Positions 4,714-39,974 of a stretch of DNA of 64,000 nucleotides are shown piece by piece. Location of the stretch: the NCBI GenBank assembly GCA_043815505.1, contig JBDRIV010000002.1:11484-75483 (forward strand). Direction: 5' to 3'. The stretch is from a bacterium (GTDB taxonomy: Bacteria; Patescibacteriota; JABMPQ01; JBDRIV01). The notes under the pieces are model-generated. The model saw only the letters and a list, made by a program, of their open reading frames with translations, made no database searches and had not been told where the DNA came from. The translations under genes were made by a program, and so were the position numbers. Positions within the stretch are counted from its first letter, which is position 1. The number at the start of each line of letters is the position of its first letter.

Positions 4714-5171
4714 ATCACAAAGAGTATTTAGTCTTGGGAGAGTAGTTCTCCCAGCTTCCTACGGAATTCCACTCACTCCGTAGTACTTAAGAATAAAACC
4801 GTAAAGTTATAACAGATTTTCGAATACAGGACTATTACCTTCTTTGGTGGACCTTTCCAGGTCACTTCTTCTAATCAATATTATTTCTTTACCTCTTGTT
4901 TGTAGCCAAGAACATTTTATCTTGCAACACCCTATTTACAACGCCTACAAGCTTGAACATAAATAAGGTTTGGACTGATCCCGTTTCGCTCGCCGCTACT
5001 AAGGGAATAATTAGCTTGTAGCAAATGGCATAGGGCAAATAGTAAACTATAAGCCATTAGCCATAAGCTATAAGCAGTTTGATTTCTTTTCCTCCGGTTA
5101 CTAAGATGTTTCAGTTCACCGGGTTGTCTTCCAACATCCTATGAATTCAGATGCGGATCCCAGCTCCACTT

Positions 5172-5435
5172 TTAGCAATCAATTTTGCTGTGTTCTAATC
5201 TCTTTTTTAATTCATGAATAGAACTCCCATGACTTTTAAGTCTTTTTTCTCTGACAATCGCATCTTTTTTGTTACGATATGCTTCAGCATAAACCAAAAT
5301 CCATTTTTCACTCTTTCTCTTTGTAGAATGAACTTGATTTTTATTATGTTCAGAGAATCTTTTCTTAAGATTTTTTGTAATTCCAACATAAAATCTTTTG
5401 TCCCCAGAATGTTGAAGTAAATAAACAATAAACAT
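5172..5435 (-). CDS. GIY-YIG nuclease-domain protein (UPF0213/YhbQ-like, 87 aa) embedded in a variable helix of the 23S 5' domain
   Basis: Motifs YLLQ...KRFYVGITKNLKKRFSEHN match the GIY-YIG signature. The ORF sits between the 23S blocks CCGAATGGGCAAACCCC and GGTGAACTGAAACATCT, where E. coli has only ~60 nt. Confidence 0.6.
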   Translation of the reverse strand: MFIVYLLQHSGDKRFYVGITKNLKKRFSEHNKNQVHSTKRKSEKWILVYAEAYRNKKDAIVREKRLKSHGSSIHELKKRLEHSKIDC

Positions 5436-6410
5436 TCTTTGGTATTAATGACTAAAAGTGGGGCTGGGGGGTTTGCCCATTCGGAGATCCTCGGATCAAG
5501 GGTTGTTTGACACCTCCCCGAGGCTTATCGCAGACTACCACGTCCTTCATCGGCTCTTTGTGTCTAGGCATTCACCATACACTCTTACCTCTTAGGTTGA
5601 TAAGATTAACTAGCTATATGTATTGATATTCAATTGTGTAAAGTCCTATCATTTGTTTTCACATTGTTGAAGTTTTTAAAACTGCAATTATCTGAAAGCA
5701 AATGGGCAACTAAAAAACCGCTCGTCGCGGCTCAATTTACACAAGGAATTATGCGTTCTAAAAGGCCGCCTAAATATGAGTAGTTAATGATCTTTTTTTC
5801 ATACGATTTTCCTTATATATTTAGATGTTTATCTGGTACTACGACTCTTTGTAGTACTGAGTTTATCGTATGAGTAGTGTACTTATAATTTAAAATGTTG
5901 TCAAGGAACAACTTTTACGCGGTGTGGACTTCCTGTGTAAAAGTGGAACATTTAGGCTTAGAATAAGAAAAAGATTAGTTTGACAATATGTTTATTTAAG
6001 CATATTCTTAATAGATTTGTGGTATTGTAATATTAGGAGGATTTGTACATTAACATTTTTGTTTGTTCTAAAAATGGGCGTAACTAATTGTGGAGGAATA
6101 AGGAAACGATAAAAAAGAAATGATATTTTCAAAAAAACAGAAAATACTACTTAGGAGAATGTTAATGAAAAAATCTACAGAATCAAATTCATTGAAGCCA
6201 GATATTATTTCAGGAGCAATTTGTAAACAACTTCCCCCAATCTGTTATGAAAGCGAAACCAAAAAGAGGGAAAGAGTAACCCAGTCTTTTAATATTCAAA
6301 GATGGTATAACGATCTTTTTGGTTTTCCCAAAGATGGTTCAATTTCAATTAGGCGGTAGAGATGTATTGTGGCTACAGTATCATGAAATTAAAACCAAAG
6401 GAGGTGAGTT

Positions 6411-6605
6411 TTGTCACAGGTCGCCGGAGTTTCAATATTTGATCTATCCATTCAACAATGTAAGGAGGAATTCTGTTCAGCATGTCTGCAATTGGCAGAG
6501 CAATCAGATATATTTCAAGCTGACATTTTAGCCAGGGCTTGCTCACTTTTCCATATTCAGGAGAAACCGAGGTGCGAAACTTGCCCCCGACAGCTATTTC
6601 TCTAA
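6411..6605 (+). CDS. Small Cys-rich hypothetical protein (64 aa, TTG start)
   Basis: SD aaggagg 8 nt upstream of TTG; Cys pairs CKEEFCSAC and CETCP; terminator-like hairpin aaaaatccc...gggattttt at ~6612-6652. Confidence 0.3.
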   Translation: MSQVAGVSIFDLSIQQCKEEFCSACLQLAEQSDIFQADILARACSLFHIQEKPRCETCPRQLFL

Positions 6606-6672
6606 CGAAATAAAAAATCCCAACTCGACTAAGCATTACGAGAAGGGATTTTTAAAAGATAACCACTACATA

Positions 6673-6882
6673 TTATTTTGATTCTTCGTCCAAACAATTA
6701 GGGCAGAAGTCTTGACCATCTTTGTTTTTCAGATGATCATTTATTGTGATTCGTTTACAACCATTACATCTTTTTCCCATACCGCGTATCAAAAGGGTAA
6801 GATTAATTGCACAACAATCATTATTCCATGGGTTGGCTCTAGATTGCAGTTTATCATTTGCAGTGGACTGGTTAAATGTCAT
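6673..6882 (-). CDS. Small HNH endonuclease-like protein (69 aa)
   Basis: CNGC ... NDHLKNKDG ... CPNC matches the HNH arrangement CxxC-DH-N-CxxC; lies in the rRNA spacer. Confidence 0.5.
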   Translation of the reverse strand: MTFNQSTANDKLQSRANPWNNDCCAINLTLLIRGMGKRCNGCKRITINDHLKNKDGQDFCPNCLDEESK

Positions 6883-6898
6883 TTTCTTTTCTCCAGGT

Positions 6899-7204
6899 TC
6901 AATAAGCTAATTTGGATCCTCTTTGTCTGCCAGTAGAGTATCCGACGTAATAATATGGGCTTTGGTTTTTCTTGGCTCGGGTTGAGCCGGGACCGTGTTG
7001 ATTGCCCTTTTTCCAATCCTTCAGGGCTTGTTCATATTCTTCTGGCGGGGCAAGTACGGGACATTTTTCACTAAGGTCTGGCTGGCCAGGAAATACATTG
7101 TCAACATGATTATTGTTTTTTCTTCCGCAATAACCGCATCTTGAATTATCGCGGCTGCCAAACATTCTTTCTCTTTCGTGTGTTGATAGTGGATCAAATA
7201 CCAT
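6899..7204 (-). CDS. Cys-containing hypothetical protein, possibly HNH-like (101 aa)
   Basis: CGYCGRKNNNHVDN...C motif pattern; weak. Confidence 0.3.
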   Translation of the reverse strand: MVFDPLSTHERERMFGSRDNSRCGYCGRKNNNHVDNVFPGQPDLSEKCPVLAPPEEYEQALKDWKKGNQHGPGSTRAKKNQSPYYYVGYSTGRQRGSKLAY

Positions 7205-7427
7205 TGTTCTTTTCTCCCAGGGTTTTATTGTAAAATGATCGGAGCGTGCTTAAGGTGCTAATATTATTTTCTAGTTTTAAGGTATCATAAAACATTTTAT
7301 GGGGGAAGTGATTTTAGTTATCCTACCAAAAAATCGCCCATTTGGCGATTACTTGTTTTTCGTTGTAAAAAATGGCATCTCGTGTGAGATGCCCGTGAAG
7401 TGAGGTGCAACTTGCAACTTTGCTCCC

Positions 7428-7571
7428 TTAATCTTTGCCGTAATAATTGCGATATGCATCTGCATCTGTGCCCCGAGGCCAACAGTTGAAGGATTTTTTC
7501 TTTCCCTTGTCAGGTAGAATAGATATTAGTACAACAACACCGACAAATCCTGCTAGCACCAAAAGTATCAT
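7428..7571 (-). CDS. Small membrane protein (47 aa); not in the ORF track
   Basis: SD ggaggg 6 nt upstream of ATG; hydrophobic MILLVLAGFVGVVVLISIL; terminator-like hairpin at ~7318-7350 on the minus strand. Confidence 0.3.
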   Translation of the reverse strand: MILLVLAGFVGVVVLISILPDKGKKKSFNCWPRGTDADAYRNYYGKD

Positions 7572-7789
7572 TTTTGTCCCTCCCATAAAAGAGTGCATAG
7601 CTTGATCTGATAAACCTCAATCAGATCCTAATTTATTAGTATCATAAATATTTTTTAAGTTAAAAAAGTATGATATTTTATTATACTTTCTATTAGCGAT
7701 TGTCTTGACAAAATAGTCATTAGGTAGTACAAAGAAGTGAGATAAATTGTCCTTGTAAAATGTATGCGAATCGCTACGAGAGGTGAATT

Positions 7790-8089
7790 ATGAAGAAGCT
7801 GTTTTCGTTCCTTTGGATTATCTGTTCAATAGTGGCAGTGTGGTTTGTTTGGGACTATTTCGGCTGGGTAGCCGGAGTAGTCGCTATTGTGGCGGTTCTA
7901 TTAATGAACAACATTTTGTTCGAAAGGAAAGAAAAAACTACGCCCAGGACAACAAGATTGACAAACGAAGACGATTATCCATCGTTTCCGTACGACGGAG
8001 GACCAGCAAGTTCTCACAACTCATCTACTTATGGTATGTATGATGGCGGTGATCAATCATCAGGACATCAAGATTACACAGCCGGTTGA
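7790..8089 (+). CDS. Small membrane protein with a low-complexity G/S/Y-rich tail
   Basis: N-terminal TM segments; candidate promoter TTGACA (7705-7710) - 17 nt - TACAAA; followed by a terminator. Confidence 0.45.
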   Translation: MKKLFSFLWIICSIVAVWFVWDYFGWVAGVVAIVAVLLMNNILFERKEKTTPRTTRLTNEDDYPSFPYDGGPASSHNSSTYGMYDGGDQSSGHQDYTAG

Positions 8090-8105
8090 ATAATTGATAT
8101 TTAGA

Positions 8106-8145
8106 CAAAACGGCCATCGGTTTTCCATCCGATGGCTTTTTTCTT
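8106..8145 (+). terminator. Rho-independent terminator
   Basis: ggccatcggttttccatccgatggcc hairpin followed by a T-run. Confidence 0.6.
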
Positions 8146-8443
8146 TCTGTAATTTTGGTGGACCGTAGGAGAGTCGAATCCGCCGGTCGGCAGACAGACC
8201 TTCTTTCAAAACAAATTTAAAATCTCTCTGGACCGCAGGGGGATCATCTACCCGCGACTACGTTTTGGGCGTGGCCAGCTTGCCCGCGGATGCGGGACGC
8301 AGCCAGGAGGAACTCACCTTTTAAACATTTTTCATGGACTCGAGGAGAATCTCACCTAGAGAGTGACCAGCCTTTGGGCGGGAACTCCTTTTTCTTTCTT
8401 TAAAATCTTATGGACCTGGCCGGATTCGAACCGGCTTTTATAA

Positions 8444-8776
8444 TTATTTTTCTAAATTTTCAACTTTTTCAAGGAATTTTTCCAACACTGTTTTTGCTAA
8501 CTCTCTATCTTTGCCGGCACTTGCTTCCATTTCTGCCCAATAACATTGATCTTGTAATTCAGGAGTTAAACTATCGTAGTCAATTTTTCCTGAACGCTCA
8601 AGAAGTTCTTTAATAGAAGCGTCAATTTTTTCAATATCTTCAGGCGAGAGATTGCTTGTTTCACTAAGACCATAATCTATTCTTCTTTGACGTGTCATTT
8701 CTCTTGCTTCTTCAGGAGTTGTAATTTTTCTTTCCAATTTTTCGGGATCTACTCCCATTTGTTCTGGTGATGTCAT
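8444..8776 (-). CDS. Acidic hypothetical protein (110 aa) located in the 16S-23S spacer
   Basis: ORF only; no clear SD. Confidence 0.3.
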   Translation of the reverse strand: MTSPEQMGVDPEKLERKITTPEEAREMTRQRRIDYGLSETSNLSPEDIEKIDASIKELLERSGKIDYDSLTPELQDQCYWAEMEASAGKDRELAKTVLEKFLEKVENLEK

Positions 8777-8929
8777 ATGTTGAATCTAAGTACTAAATCT
8801 TTTATTGACTAAGAGTCAGAATCGCTTACCCAGTCGTGCTGTGCGCGACTGTGGAAATCGCCTTATAAACATTTTAAACTCCTGGACTCAGAGCGAGAAT
8901 AAGAACTCCTTTTTAAAACATTTTGCCTC

Positions 8930-9003
8930 TGGACCCGGCCGGATTCGAACCGGCGGCCCCCTGCTTGCAAAGCAGGTGCTCTAGCCAACTGAGCTACGGG
9001 CCC
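8930..9003 (-). tRNA. tRNA-Ala(TGC)
   Basis: Reverse complement GGGCCCGTAGCTCAGTTGG...CTTTGCAAG...GGTTCGAATCC...CGGGTCCA has a G3:U70 pair and anticodon TGC. Confidence 0.9.
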
Positions 9004-9206
9004 AAAGGCAAAATGTTTTAAACCCCCTGGTCTTGCAAACAGTTTAATTTTCTATTGAAAATTAAACTGGGGGGTGCGTCTGCGGTTGAGCTACGAGCCC
9101 ATGGAAAAATGATTATAACTCCTGCAGTGTGACTTTGCTAAGGGCTGTTGGCAAATTGCAAATGGAAAACGTTAATTGCTATTAGCCACTCGCTATAAGC
9201 CAAATG

Positions 9207-9464
9207 CTACTGCAGTGTGGTGGAGCCAGGAAGAACACTGGACACACAACCACCGATCATTCTTTCCAACAAACCAAACATAAATAAAAATGAAAACATT
9301 ATTAGCAGTCCCCCAATTAATCTGATGGCGACTCTGGTGCCACCAAACATGCCAAGATATTTTTCTAACGTGGCGGACTGACCAACTAAGTTATAAATTT
9401 GTTCGCCCCATTTTATCATGGCGGCGCCAATTAGAATGCCAATAATTCCCCAAACTATTCTCAT
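9207..9464 (-). CDS. Small membrane protein (85 aa) between tRNA-Ile and tRNA-Ala; preceded directly by family-D element copy A
   Basis: Two to three hydrophobic segments; GAAGAG upstream of the ATG. Confidence 0.35.
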   Translation of the reverse strand: MRIVWGIIGILIGAAMIKWGEQIYNLVGQSATLEKYLGMFGGTRVAIRLIGGLLIMFSFLFMFGLLERMIGGCVSSVLPGSTTLQ

Positions 9465-9589
9465 GTCGTCGTAACAACTCTTCAGCTTTCGTCCCGCTTA
9501 GCGGGACTTCACCCTGCGAGTTGTTTCTCCTCTCAATTTAAACGCGTGCTCACTCCGCGTTGCGGGGTTGCACTCCTCGTTTAAATTGC
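9465..9589 (-). ncRNA. Family-D structured element, copy A (~125 nt)
   Basis: Minus-strand stem CAATTTAAACG/CGTTTAAATTG, then GAGAGGAGAAACAA and a 3' block CTGAAGAGTTGTTACGACG. The stem covaries in copies B and C. Confidence 0.45.
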
Positions 9590-9693
9590 AACTAATAATA
9601 CTTTATAAATTCCCCAGTGGGTGACCTGAAGATTTTCAGCCAGAGGCTGATCCGCCTTTGGCGGAGAACCTCGTCACTTAATACATCTCTCAG

Positions 9694-9767
9694 TGGGCGA
9701 TCGAGGATTTGAACCTCGGACCTCGTCATTATCAGTGACGCGCTCTAACCAACTGAGCTAATCGCCC
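9694..9767 (-). tRNA. tRNA-Ile(GAT)
   Basis: Reverse complement GGGCGATTAGCTCAGTTGGTTAGAGCGCGTCACTGATAATGACGAGGTCCGAGGTTCAAATCCTCGATCGCCCA. Confidence 0.9.
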
Positions 9768-9798
9768 ACTGAGAGATTTATCTTTTTATTATACATTA

Positions 9799-10026
9799 GG
9801 ATGATCACCCGTAGGGTGAGAATCTCGGACCTCGTCTCGTCCAAACAATACTTCAGTCTTCGCAATCCAACAAGTTGAATTGCTTCGACTTACGTATTGT
9901 TTCTCCTCTCCGATTAAAAACGTGCTCGTTCACTACGTTCACTGCGCACCATTTTTAATCGGTAACTGTTAAGTGACGCGCCTGCCTGCCGGCAGGCAGG
10001 CTCTAACCAACTGAGCAAACGTTGCC
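9799..10026 (-). pseudogene. tRNA-Ile-like paralog interrupted by a 19-nt GC hairpin in the D region and by family-D element copy B (9838-9962) in the anticodon loop
   Basis: 5' part GGCAACGTTTGCTCAGTTGGTTAGAGC[CTGCCTGCCGGCAGGCAGG]CGCGTCACTTAACAG... then the 125-nt element ... GACGAGGTCCGAG; T-arm region degenerate. Confidence 0.45.
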
Positions 10027-10146
10027 TAGGGCTAATAGCAAATAGCAAATGGCACTAAAATATAATTGCAATTAGCTATAAGCCATTCGCCATTCGCCAA
10101 CTAGTTTACCATTTACAAAGCCACTTTTCAAGAAAAAATTATGACA

Positions 10147-10205
10147 AACCCCGCCCCACCCCACTCCAGTTCTAATTAAAAACTGGGGCTGGGTGGAGCG
10201 GGGTT
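10147..10205. repeat. Family-A palindrome (short form) between the 16S 3' end and the tRNA-Ile paralog
   Basis: aaccccgccccaccccactccagttctaattaaaaactggggctgggtggagcggggtt. Confidence 0.7.
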
Positions 10206-10445
10206 ATCTTTTGACATTTAAATAGTGATAGGAGCAGATTGACATGTCATGAATGAATTCATGAAAGTCGACCTTCGGGTATGCTTGCTTATTAAACAAG
10301 CGGATATTCCCTAGAAAGGAGGTGATCCATCCACAGCTTCCGCTACGGATGCCTTGTTACGACTTTGCCCCTCTCGCTGGGCCCACCTTCGGTCCTAGAA
10401 CTAGGAACTTCGGGTGTTCCCAACTCGCTTGACATGACGGGCGGT

Positions 10446-11371
10446 ATCGAGATCCAAATTGGTCTCACACCACTGGGCAAACGGTTTTACCGTACCCTAG
10501 CGGTTCCACGAATATTATTCAGCTTGCGAATTTTATTTCGCAAAGAAACAATTTTTTTAAATCCAACATCGGTTAGATGCTGTTTGGATTTAATTAACAT
10601 AACTGCTTCACAAAATAATTCATAAACCAAACGCTTTTTAGCTCTCAACTTGTAACGGTTGAAGAAGGGAATTATTTTTTCACTCAAATCATTTATATTG
10701 CTCACTTTATATTTGACATGCGGATGCCATTTATAACGAGCATAATTTAAGCGATAGATATTTCCGCAACCAAAAGCATTTTTAATTTGGTTTAGGATTT
10801 CTTCATCATCGGCGCGGAGTTCTATTTCAAACTCTGCCCTAACTTCTTGTCGGCGTTTCAAGGTTTGATGTTTGCTGATACTAATACAGAAACATCCTTC
10901 CCCGTCAACGAAACCGACAATATATTCGGGATGAAGATTATTATTTTCGTGGTTCGGTCCTTTTCCCGCTCCAGTTTGTTTTAAACTGGGGCTGGATACT
11001 ACGACCTCTGCTGACTTCTTGTATTGCATCGTCATAATATTGCTATTATGTCTTAATTCTCGTGGGGTTTGCACCCCGAGGTTATTATACCTCAAAACAA
11101 GAATACAATACAAGATCTCCCTGGGTCACCTTATAAACCGTTCTTTCTCATCTCGGCTTTCCTGCACTTTAGTTTCCAAATTTACAGAAGACTTCCCTAC
11201 GTACACGAAAGGTCGTCGTTGAAACTAAAGCCTAAACGAAAGCTCAAGCTAAGAAATGCTACTTTTACCCTTGTTCCCAAACCTCACGATTTGGGACTGT
11301 AATTTCGCTTCCCAGTTTCTGCAAACTGGGGTGTGATTTTAACACACTGGTTTATAAAATTGCCAGGCGCA
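10446..11371 (-). mobile_element. 16S intron (group-I-like) inserted within CUUGUACAC / ACCGCCCGUCA (E. coli ~1395-1400)
   Basis: Exon matches stop at plus 11372 (gtgtacaag) and resume at plus 10445 (gacatgacgggcggt). Contains a LAGLIDADG ORF. The exact splice junction is ambiguous by +/-3 nt. Confidence 0.6.
10487..11113 (-). CDS. LAGLIDADG homing endonuclease, encoded in the 16S intron
   Basis: Motif IVGFVDGEGCFCISI in a 208-aa protein. Family-A palindrome cccgctccagtttgttttaaactggggctgg lies in-frame at 10958-10994 and encodes KQTGAGKG. Confidence 0.8.
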   Translation of the reverse strand: MYCILVLRYNNLGVQTPRELRHNSNIMTMQYKKSAEVVVSSPSLKQTGAGKGPNHENNNLHPEYIVGFVDGEGCFCISISKHQTLKRRQEVRAEFEIELRADDEEILNQIKNAFGCGNIYRLNYARYKWHPHVKYKVSNINDLSEKIIPFFNRYKLRAKKRLVYELFCEAVMLIKSKQHLTDVGFKKIVSLRNKIRKLNNIRGTARVR

Positions 11372-39090: not shown

Positions 39091-39259
39091 CTCCTTGTAT
39101 TTTCAATTAGTATAATTGTAACAAATTTCTTGGTATCGGGAAAGTGTAATAAATTTGACGAAAAAATACCGCCGAGTATAATGAAAACAAAAGTGCCCAC
39201 ACAGAAACAAAAAAATTGGCACTTTTTCAATACCTTGGTCCAAATTTGTCCGAAAGGAG

Positions 39260-39631
39260 GTGAGAACGTTGAATTGTTGTACTAGTGACAGAAAAACCGA
39301 AAATCGCTGGATTGATTGGAGTCAGTTGATTCCACGTGTCACTCATCTGCCAATAGGTCGTTATGACCCTTGCCCTCGGTGCAATCGAGGCACGGAAAAG
39401 AAGGTGGTTCGGGGCAAACTGAGGTCCGTGCCTACGCACGGTGATTTCATGGTTTGTCCCTTGTGCCAGCAGGTTTTCTGCAGTGCTTGTTTCTTGAGCG
39501 ATCCAACACGTCTCACAAACATATTCTTGCTCAAAACAAGTCGTCTGAAATCGCTTGGCGCTTCCGTCAATACTGCAGTTCCTTGTCCGGACTGCAAAGA
39601 GATTGTCGATCTCAACGGCCCAAAAAATTAG
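39260..39631 (+). CDS. GC-rich small zinc-ribbon protein (123 aa, GTG start)
   Basis: SD aaggagg 6 nt upstream; CPRC ... CPLC and CPDC pairs; local GC is about 50% against a background near 35%; followed by a terminator. Confidence 0.45.
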   Translation: MRTLNCCTSDRKTENRWIDWSQLIPRVTHLPIGRYDPCPRCNRGTEKKVVRGKLRSVPTHGDFMVCPLCQQVFCSACFLSDPTRLTNIFLLKTSRLKSLGASVNTAVPCPDCKEIVDLNGPKN

Positions 39632-39671
39632 AGGGGTTTGGTAAATGAAAACCAAAATAAACGGACCTTAT

Positions 39672-39706
39672 GTCGCGTTGCTAGATTCTACCGCAACGCG
39701 ACTTTT
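39672..39706 (+). terminator. Rho-independent terminator
   Basis: gtcgcgttgc ... gcaacgcgac followed by tttttt. Confidence 0.6.
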
Positions 39707-39938
39707 TTATTAGTTTACTTTTTAGAAAAGTAACAAAAGCTTTCTTTTTCCACCATTTGCTTGCCCAAATGGTGGAGCCAAAGGGCACAACCGGGGATTC
39801 GGCTTGAAACTTCCACTTTCTTTTTCCACTTTTTGGCAGCAAAAACTGGAGGAAAAACTGCCTCGCGGTGGTTGATTTTTGAAGATCACTATCAGCTCGA
39901 CCCTGCCCGCCTGATGGCGGGCTCATTAATTTCCTAAA

Positions 39939-39974
39939 CTCCCCAGCTCCAGTTTTGCGAAAACTGGGGCTGAG
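39939..39974. repeat. Family-A palindrome (short form)
   Basis: ccccagctccagttttgcgaaaactggggctgag. Confidence 0.7.

Follow-up and report, generated by a model that had tools for sequence, protein, structure and literature searches.

A stretch of 64,000 nucleotides from contig JBDRIV010000002.1 of assembly GCA_043815505.1, hereafter termed the window, carries three copies of a structured element of about 125 nt, one ending at the 5′ end of a tRNA gene, one at a start codon and one within the anticodon loop of a second tRNA-Ile-like gene. This arrangement raises the question of what the element is, since the original prediction left a choice between a small mobile intron-like element, a processed tRNA leader and a new family of noncoding RNA (ncRNA). 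The window derives from a metagenome-assembled genome (MAG) of the Patescibacteria (candidate phyla radiation, CPR), and the nearest relatives of its asparaginyl-tRNA synthetase-like (AsnRS-like) protein, at 68 to 72% identity, include Candidatus Komeilibacteria. On comparative sequence evidence, the element is an undescribed and strongly covarying RNA family confined, as far as sampled, to Komeilibacteria-like Patescibacteria. The reading that we favor, with a probability of about 0.55, is that the family is a tRNA-leader RNA which is released by RNase P and which multiplied by insertion among the termini of tRNA genes.

A covariance model (R1) built from the three window copies matched all of them on the minus strand, at essentially the positions first reported, with scores of 120 to 143 bits (E values of 1e-25 to 5e-31); no further significant match, and hence no fourth copy, was detected with this model within the 64-kb window. 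Copy A (9464..9592; 119.7 bits, E value of 1e-25) lies between the 16S and 23S genes, in the spacer, at about 100 nt downstream from tRNA-Ile, copy B (9835..9966; 141.5 bits) interrupts a tRNA-Ile pseudogene at its anticodon loop and copy C (40269..40404; 143.1 bits), 30 kb from the other two, forms the 5′ leader of tRNA-Arg(tcg). In an alignment of the three, the mean column identity was 76%. Their folds were more stable than those of shuffled sequences, with z scores of −5.6, −7.1 and −8.4 for copies A, B and C, respectively, and none of 200 shuffles equaled any copy. RNAalifold predicted 45 pairs for the three sequences, of which 22 exhibited compensatory change.

Family members range from 87 to 136 nt in length and share a layout of a 5′ hairpin (H1), a linker, a second hairpin (H2) and a tail. 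H1 has a stem of 11 to 13 bp of free sequence that is fully paired in all three window copies, which bears out the claim of an 11-bp stem differing in sequence between copies and complementary in each. In the window copies (9534..9588 in copy A, where the covarying stem is 11 bp; 9910..9962 in copy B; 40346..40401 in copy C) and in the related locus L197, H1 extends into a GUGC/GCAC helix and an apical stem. H1 is a plain hairpin in the relatives L025, L198b and L204a and is reduced to a four-pair stem only in L204b, indicating that this hairpin is dispensable. The loop words GGTGCGCAG...GAGCACG, attributed originally to every copy, are present in copies B and C but not in copy A, which reads GGAGTGCAA...GAGCACG. 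H1 and H2 are connected by a single-stranded, purine-rich linker, GAGAGGAG, represented by AGAGGAGA in copy A (9526..9533), AGAGGAG in copy B (9903..9909) and AAAGGA(G) in copy C (40340..40345). Sense copies have GA(A)GAGGAG at this position, L198b, L204b and L210 have AAAGGGG or GAGGGGG, and L025 has AAAGCCA.

The invariant heart of the element is H2 (9473..9525, 9843..9902 and 40276..40339 in copies A, B and C, respectively), with C-GNA-AGCU-GAA-G on both strands. The H2 core consists of a 12-mer, CGNA-AGCU-GAAG, paired with itself (a CGUAAGCUGAAG self-duplex) to give a two-fold symmetric arrangement of a 4-bp helix between two 3×3 GNA/GNA loops, in the order C-G; G.A, N.A, A.G; four Watson-Crick pairs; G.A, A.N, A.G; G-C. 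Variants of the 4-bp helix are mutually pairing (AGUC/GACU, AACU/AGUU and AGCC/GGCU), the core of copy B being CGUA-AGUC-GAAG ... CGAA-GACU-GAAG. The core is flanked by a basal stem of 5 to 10 bp and an apical stem-loop, and copy A exhibits the complete series of basal stem, 3×3 loop, 4-bp helix, 3×3 loop and apical stem. This second and longer covarying hairpin was overlooked in the original prediction; the blocks GAGAGGAGAAACAA and CTGAAG..TTGTTACGACG listed there as conserved are present, but they are not free-standing and correspond to the linker, the two strands of H2 and the tail. The element terminates in a single-stranded tail, (U)UACGACGA in the sense copies and summarized as ACGACGA for the window copies, in which it reads ACGACGAC (copy A, 9465..9472), GGACGAGAC (copy B, 9834..9842) and (AC)GACGC (copy C, 40271..40275). 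H2 is conserved even in antisense copies and in L210, in which the linker and tail are not.

The helices contain 18 G-U pairs versus a single A-C pair and purines predominate in the internal loops of the named strand, indicating that the folded molecule is an RNA in the stated orientation. As modeled, the combination of a 5′ hairpin, an exposed purine stretch and a large 3′ hairpin would be a build typical of stable small RNAs. The symmetric H2 is most likely a binding site for a homodimeric protein or nuclease and, more speculatively, base pairing is conceivable between the AGGAG-like linker and pyrimidine-rich sequences, for example, the 3′ end of 16S rRNA. Likenesses to the hammerhead ribozyme, the hairpin ribozyme and 5S rRNA that were noted by eye were unsupported in Rfam. 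Assignment to K-turn or box C/D-type RNAs was rejected, the loops being symmetric 3×3 loops with no properly arranged RUGAUGA or CUGA box pairs, and TIGR-Tas and box C/D arrays were rejected in the absence of 8- to 12-nt spacers, arrays or a Nop protein (PMC12045711).

Searches with the covariance model returned further members in related genomes, again with covariation, and the family now comprises 10 firm members (3 in the window and 7 relatives) from about five organisms plus one doubtful member. The seven relatives come from Komeilibacteria-type MAGs and groundwater metagenomes. L025, from a Komeilibacteria MAG, was found through synteny around the AsnRS-like gene and scored 46 bits with R1 and 84 bits with model R2. 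L197 and the two copies of L198 were obtained with a consensus-like H2 pattern in the JGI metagenomes. L204, found through its trxB neighbor in the same MAG as L025, has two copies orthologous to the L198 pair. Tracing trxB from L198 into relatives yielded one diverged copy, L210, as well as three lineages with an empty site. The doubtful member, L199 (21.6 bits), is located in an rRNA spacer of a GC-rich organism.

Other searches added no members. A strict pattern, GAGCACG..AGGAG..CG.A....GAAG, had 0 matches in the JGI metagenomes, and the IMG/VR matches to relaxed patterns (23, 87 and 1) proved by model search to be chance or coding repeats. No element was detected in 27 Patescibacteria loci around the AsnRS-like gene in GTDB genomes, this synteny route having been productive for L025 only. 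A descriptor scan for the H2 core over 2.5 Mb found coding repeats only and no additional copies, and L196, L200 and L201, from the metagenome scan, were false positives with a direct repeat or no model match. Contigs of L203, L205, L206 and L207 end just upstream of trxB, within or beside an inverted element pair; inverted copies may fragment short-read assemblies, in which case the family would be under-represented in metagenome contigs.

Covariation was examined in an alignment of 11 rows, consisting of the 10 firm members and L199. Standard pairs occupied 94.6% of the pair cells, as compared to 31 to 39% when the partners were slid by one to three columns. Changes on both sides were observed for 39 of the 44 pairs, and 0 of 500 shuffles reached any of the observed pairing measures. 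A compensatory change, UUCAC/GUGAA versus UUUAC/GUAAA, separates the orthologs L198b and L204b. The slid controls and this ortholog-level change indicate that the covariation signal is genuine. No member had a match in Rfam 15 at an E value of ≤10, and a scan of the whole window at gathering thresholds gave none for the element. The lack of an Rfam match, the strong covariation and the presence of relatives in other genomes uphold the proposal of a new ncRNA family.

The tail lies 0 to 3 nt from a tRNA end at most loci, with the sense side meeting position +1 of the tRNA and the antisense side meeting the encoded CCA end. Zero offset to +1 was observed at four loci, namely, for copy C at tRNA-Arg(tcg), for L198a and L204a at tRNA-Ala(ggc) and for L197 at tRNA-Cys. 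Copy C ends at 40271 and tRNA-Arg(tcg) (40196..40270, minus strand; detected by ARAGORN and, with 68 bits, by the Rfam tRNA model) starts at 40270, the tail stopping one base before +1, exactly as first described. The antisense copies L198b and L204b abut the CCA end of tRNA-Arg(cct), and L025 abuts that of tRNA-Arg(ccg). Copy A, L210 and the doubtful L199 do not abut a tRNA, each being within about 130 nt of tRNA genes. By our rough estimate, which assumes ∼45 tRNA genes in a genome of ∼0.7 Mb, a random site would be ≤3 nt from a tRNA end with a probability of ∼5e-4; as five of eight independent loci fall within 3 nt, this placement is not due to chance. In the modeled precursor, copy C folds separately from tRNA-Arg and leaves its tail unpaired next to the acceptor stem. 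The rnpA gene (PF00825) was found in these lineages, indicating that canonical RNase P is available. The earlier suggestion of an RNase P-processed leader therefore gains support from context, given that the element ends at the tRNA +1 position in four independent loci.

Comparison of related genomes indicated how the element came to occupy these positions. Upstream of trxB, in the spacer between tRNA-Arg(cct) and tRNA-Ala(ggc), the promoter region is common to five lineages, having the form TTGATT-17-TATTAT or a near variant in four of the five and TTGACA-17-TATATT in L210, and a leader of about 12 nt is common to all five. The tRNA-Ala directly follows this leader in the empty alleles of L208, L213 and L210. 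In the filled alleles of L198 and L204, where the promoter upstream of both tRNA-Ala copies reads TTGATT-17-TAT(T/C)AT, an element of ∼115 nt is present exactly between the leader and the +1 of tRNA-Ala, and L198 has kept the ancestral spacer between its sense and antisense copies. The tRNA-Arg(ccg) site is filled in L025 and empty in L027. Filled and empty alleles with the same promoter, leader and tRNA indicate that the element is an insertion at precise tRNA boundaries. The element is common to species with 81%-identical TrxB and is absent at 70 to 72% identity. No target-site duplication was visible in the alignment of filled and empty sites, and no terminal inverted repeats were present. 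Mobility, as part of the proposed mobile intron-like nature, thus stands, while the intron part is contradicted by the size of the element, the lack of a catalytic core and a dead host tRNA. A separate conserved palindrome, (T)GTTCCACGTGGAAC(A), was observed between a divergent bactofilin-DAGK operon and tRNA-Arg(cct) in five of five Komeilibacteria-type loci (L198, ∼785-805; L204, ∼9560-9575; L208, ∼4738-4755; L210, 9200-9217; L213, ∼2560-2577) and probably represents an operator bound by a dimeric transcription factor.

Copy B lies, as was claimed, within a tRNA-Ile paralogue, between a 5′ half (9963..10026, minus strand) comprising the D arm and the 5′ strand of the anticodon stem and a 3′ half (9799..9833, minus strand) comprising the 3′ strand of the anticodon stem with a degenerate T arm and acceptor. 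The former matches GCTCAGTTGGTTAGAGC and GCGTCACT and the latter GACGAGGTCCGAG.TTC, with the tail of copy B continuing into GAGGTCC of the 3′ half. The GC hairpin reported in the D region is present as a perfect palindrome, CCTGCCTGCCGGCAGGCAGG (9981-10000), that follows the D arm as an insertion and has a length of 20 nt rather than 19 nt. The T arm has a 5-nt insertion and substitutions, inspection of the sequence showed no complementary acceptor strands, and the paralogue escaped detection by both ARAGORN and the Rfam tRNA model. To judge from these lesions, the interrupted paralogue is a pseudogene that excision could not restore. The functional paralogue is an intact tRNA-Ile(gat) at 9693-9767 on the minus strand, detected by ARAGORN and Rfam, whose anticodon stem also contains the GACGA plus GG word of the copy B tail (UGACGAGG). 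In L213 (∼2583-2650), a GC-rich hairpin is present in the D region of a partial tRNA-Arg duplicate upstream of an intact tRNA-Arg(cct), and decayed tRNA copies with insertions seem to build up beside intact ones in these lineages.

The contact of copy A with a start codon was also confirmed, the copy ending at 9465 and the ATG of an 85-amino-acid (aa) orphan open reading frame (ORF; 9207..9464, minus strand) following directly at 9464. The product had no Pfam family and only a self-match among 5.8 billion clusters. This contact is probably incidental and the ORF probably not part of the system, as far as homology searches can tell. A general function of the element as an ORF leader or as a hairpin bridging a Shine-Dalgarno sequence was dropped because the 85-aa ORF has no homologues.

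Under the preferred reading, the element is probably a small RNA that is liberated from tRNA precursors and has propagated between tRNA genes. It would be transcribed as part of a pre-tRNA leader, making up the bulk of that leader in sense copies, and cleavage by RNase P at +1 would release a discrete RNA of 105 to 135 nt with the tail as its 3′ end. In the released molecule, H1 would shield the 5′ end and H2 would lie near the 3′ end. Multiplication would occur by insertion of new copies at the termini of tRNA genes. Copy B could have arisen in a tRNA-Ile copy by a terminus-type insertion or by recombination through the GACGAGG word common to both sequences, with later decay of that tRNA-Ile copy, and copy A would be a solo copy in an rRNA spacer.

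Several observations weigh against this reading. Copy A and the L210 copy have no following tRNA, and at the antisense loci the element is followed by the mirror image of a tRNA, which the Rfam tRNA model does not recognize; release by RNase P is, hence, not an explanation for every copy. No conserved partner protein adjoining the element was found. The family is sparse, with no match in roughly 480 kb of other Patescibacteria loci. The covariation statistics derive from about 10 sequences of a few genomes and from a model-fitted alignment that leans toward structure.

An unlikely alternative is a purely selfish, nonautonomous element, either like a miniature inverted-repeat transposable element (MITE) or a retro-copied RNA, that resides at tRNA ends and has no cellular function, with hairpins that would act solely in its propagation. 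Consistent with such an element are the clean alternation of filled and empty sites at the same positions across related genomes, the presence of several diverged copies per genome (three in the 64-kb window and at least three in GCA_030688315.1), the occurrence of both orientations, the copy inside a tRNA pseudogene and the location of the L210 copy at a different spot from the copies of its relatives. Copies within one genome are, however, only about 76% identical with stems that are still perfectly paired through compensatory changes, and orthologous copies have been kept between the species with 81%-identical TrxB. Drift of the stems while the loop and linker sequences stay conserved points to selection on a folded RNA rather than to recent copy-and-paste. 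Neither a MITE nor a palindrome-associated transposable element (PATE) of the IS200/IS605 type fits a family whose H1 and H2 are unrelated hairpins, whose copies are not near-identical and which is without the inverted repeats and duplications of such elements, and no transposase, integrase or reverse transcriptase was present among the window ORFs scanned. A selfish origin overlaps with release from tRNA leaders and does not exclude it. More tentative is a retro-mobile small RNA that parasitizes tRNA genes with the aid of a resident reverse transcriptase. RNase P would free an RNA with the tail as its 3′ end, and the reverse transcriptase would join this end to mature tRNA termini, such that priming from the CCA-3′OH of a tRNA would generate antisense copies exactly after CCA, end-to-end template switching at the tRNA 5′ end would generate sense copies at +1 and a switch onto a tRNA with a nicked anticodon loop would generate copy B. 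Recombination would then carry the cDNA into the tRNA gene, with each new sense copy being automatically expressed and released again. An RNA-mediated route is attractive because the junctions are mature tRNA termini and not a shared DNA word at a fixed distance.

The remaining explanations assign the element a role where it stands. A cis-acting regulatory or processing leader of stable-RNA operons, serving in antitermination, as an RNase III site or as an attenuator of tRNA or rRNA output that senses a ligand or protein, would account for the presence of the element in tRNA leaders and an rRNA spacer. The succession of two hairpins, the first of them variable, on either side of a conserved linear word rich in purines resembles a boxB-boxA layout, and H2, with ∼20 to 26 base-pair equivalents and two-fold symmetry, would suit a dimeric double-stranded RNA-binding enzyme. 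Such a leader is improbable since the element is optional, the tRNA-Ala leaders of L208, L210 and L213 sharing the promoter without it, and since antisense copies could not regulate the abutting tRNA in this way. Comparison of the purine-rich linker by eye with the boxA consensus showed no word close to GCUCUUUAACAA or UGUUCUUUGA, and H2 is not followed by a terminator-like hairpin and U tract. Still less probable is a self-cleaving ribozyme whose cut at its own 3′ terminus would create, independently of RNase P, the tRNA 5′ end or, for copy A, a leaderless mRNA. The element terminates exactly at an AUG and at the +1 of four different tRNAs, which would fit self-cleavage, as would the grouping of conserved unpaired nucleotides (linker, GNA loops and tail) near the junction. 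Against this, rnpA is present in the same genomes, the linker and tail lose their conservation in the antisense copies and L210 though H2 does not, and no Rfam 15 ribozyme (hammerhead, hairpin, HDV-like, twister, twister-sister, pistol or hatchet) matched at an E value of ≤10; we know of no small ribozyme class with a cleavage site at the very 3′ limit of the molecule. A miniature tRNA intron (group I-like, group II-like or bulge-helix-bulge) derived from the tRNA-Ile paralogue is very improbable. Copy B does occupy the anticodon-loop region of a tRNA-Ile-like sequence, the 4-bp helix of H2 with its 3-nt unpaired flanks superficially resembles a bulge-helix-bulge, and Patescibacteria carry group I introns in anticodon loops (PMC13011429). 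Nine of the 10 firm copies are, however, outside tRNAs, the host tRNA-Ile is disrupted in its T arm, has a palindrome in its D region and is detected by no tRNA tool, and the element, at 87 to 136 nt, falls short of the 184 bp of the smallest group I intron in bacterial tRNA genes (PMC13011429). The H2 loops are symmetric 3×3 internal loops rather than opposed bulges. No match to RF00028 or to group II introns was found at an E value of ≤10, and the only group II signature of the window (10957-11055) is inside a 16S intron and outside the element.

The rRNA operon around copies A and B has several unusual features. The 16S rRNA gene (12771 to 10328, minus strand) is split near position 1389 by an intron of ∼850 nt (10446-11295) that contains a LAGLIDADG ORF (10487-11113), leaving a 3′ exon at 10328-10445. 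This intron carries the group-II-D1D4-1 signature mentioned above (Rfam match at 10957-11055, 50.9 bits), which merits a closer look given that a 2026 survey found 0 group II introns among 95 complete Patescibacteria genomes (PMC13011429). The 23S rRNA gene (5598-783, minus strand) is intron-rich and spans 4.8 kb, with at least two LAGLIDADG ORFs and one GIY-YIG ORF inside and an additional LAGLIDADG ORF just past its Rfam-defined 3′ end (ORFs of this region at 175-627, 1587-2090, 2397-2948 and 5172-5435). No 5S rRNA was detected in the whole window. At about 5880-5910, some 300 nt before the start of the 23S gene, there is a good promoter-like site of the TTGACA/TATAAG type, and the operon may thus be functionally split.

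The 16S-23S spacer (5599-10327; 4.7 kb) contains the tRNA-Ile pseudogene, the intact tRNA-Ile, the 85-aa ORF, tRNA-Ala (8929-9004, minus strand) and orphan ORFs. The small orphan ORFs of the spacer (85, 110, 99, 101, 69 and 56 aa) had no Pfam matches. A 25-nt copy of the tRNA-Ala 3′ end, 96% identical, is located 519 bp downstream (8411-8435 versus 8930-8954); tRNA-Ala and this copy flank the 110-aa ORF (8444-8776), and the repeat looks like an attL/attR-type duplication from a small insertion into the tRNA 3′ end. A separate family of GC-rich hairpin repeats, CCCCGC(T/C)CCAGTTTT...AAAACTGGGGCGGGG, occurs in rRNA introns, the spacer and intergenic regions (approximate starts at 2407, 4325, 4516, 10146-10207, 10965, 23297, 33713, 39943 and 50644) and could represent terminators or another small palindromic element. 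Downstream of tRNA-Arg(tcg), a region of ∼1.1 kb (39100-40195) has no convincing ORF, open frames on both strands, a GC content of 0.51 versus about 0.35 around it and no Rfam match at an E value of ≤1; this region may be an unrecognized RNA gene or a foreign fragment.

If the preferred reading is correct, the family represents a new and well-supported class of structured RNA from the poorly explored Patescibacteria, and the H2 core with its twin GNA/GNA loops lends itself to structural studies and protein-binding assays. Insertion at tRNA ends would imply either tRNA-punctuated production of small RNAs in reduced genomes or an RNA-mediated form of mobility with tRNA landing sites. Such leaders, along with decayed tRNA copies, can mislead the annotation of tRNAs and introns in these genomes. 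Precedents exist for small structured RNAs and repeats linked to tRNAs, while the tie of this family to tRNA ends appears to be undescribed; to our knowledge, no bacterial repeat family is joined to the base to mature tRNA termini.

Among known systems, the group I introns of Patescibacteria come from the same phylum and share with the element an interrupted anticodon loop (copy B only) and the absence of a homing endonuclease (PMC13011429). Bacterial tRNA group I introns are 184 to 894 bp in length (PMC13011429), whereas the element is shorter, has no catalytic core and is mostly found at tRNA ends, with the interrupted host being a pseudogene. The 4-bp helix, 3-nt unpaired flanks and pseudo two-fold symmetry of H2 recall the archaeal bulge-helix-bulge and RNase III-type substrates, and this likeness to two-fold symmetric substrates suggests recognition by a dimeric protein. 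The unpaired segments of H2, unlike those of a bulge-helix-bulge, face each other as GNA/GNA loops and do not form bulges on opposite strands. Small interspersed hairpin repeats of bacteria include REP/BIME, Correia/NEMIS, RUP and the PATEs of IS200/IS605. The element resembles these repeats in being short, ORF-less, intergenic, multicopy and hairpin-forming and in being present or absent between relatives. It differs in that its copies are old and covarying, strand-specific with a G-U bias and GA-rich loops, and precise in their tRNA termini, with no terminal inverted repeats or target duplications.

Links between retroelements and tRNAs are exemplified by the use of tRNA primers by long terminal repeat (LTR) elements and by variants of the Mauriceville retroplasmid with tRNA-CCA junctions. 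As in these tRNA-primed or template-switching retroelements, the junctions of the element are at mature tRNA termini, including positions directly after CCA, and the antisense copies are oriented as would be a cDNA primed by a tRNA 3′ end. The likeness is one of inference, there being no linked reverse transcriptase and the CCA being gene-encoded and, hence, not diagnostic. Noncoding RNAs punctuated by tRNAs include MALAT1 or MEN-beta with mascRNA, the tRNA-snoRNA dicistrons of plants and the transcripts covered by the mitochondrial tRNA punctuation model. The present family differs from these in being bacterial, in having its own architecture, in including antisense copies at CCA and in being insertion-polymorphic, with cleavage here predicted from position. 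What it shares with them is a structured RNA directly upstream of a tRNA, whose 5′ processing sets the 3′ end of that RNA; for the element, this correspondence is seen in its location immediately upstream of the tRNA, with zero offset to +1 at four loci and a conserved tRNA-Ala promoter.

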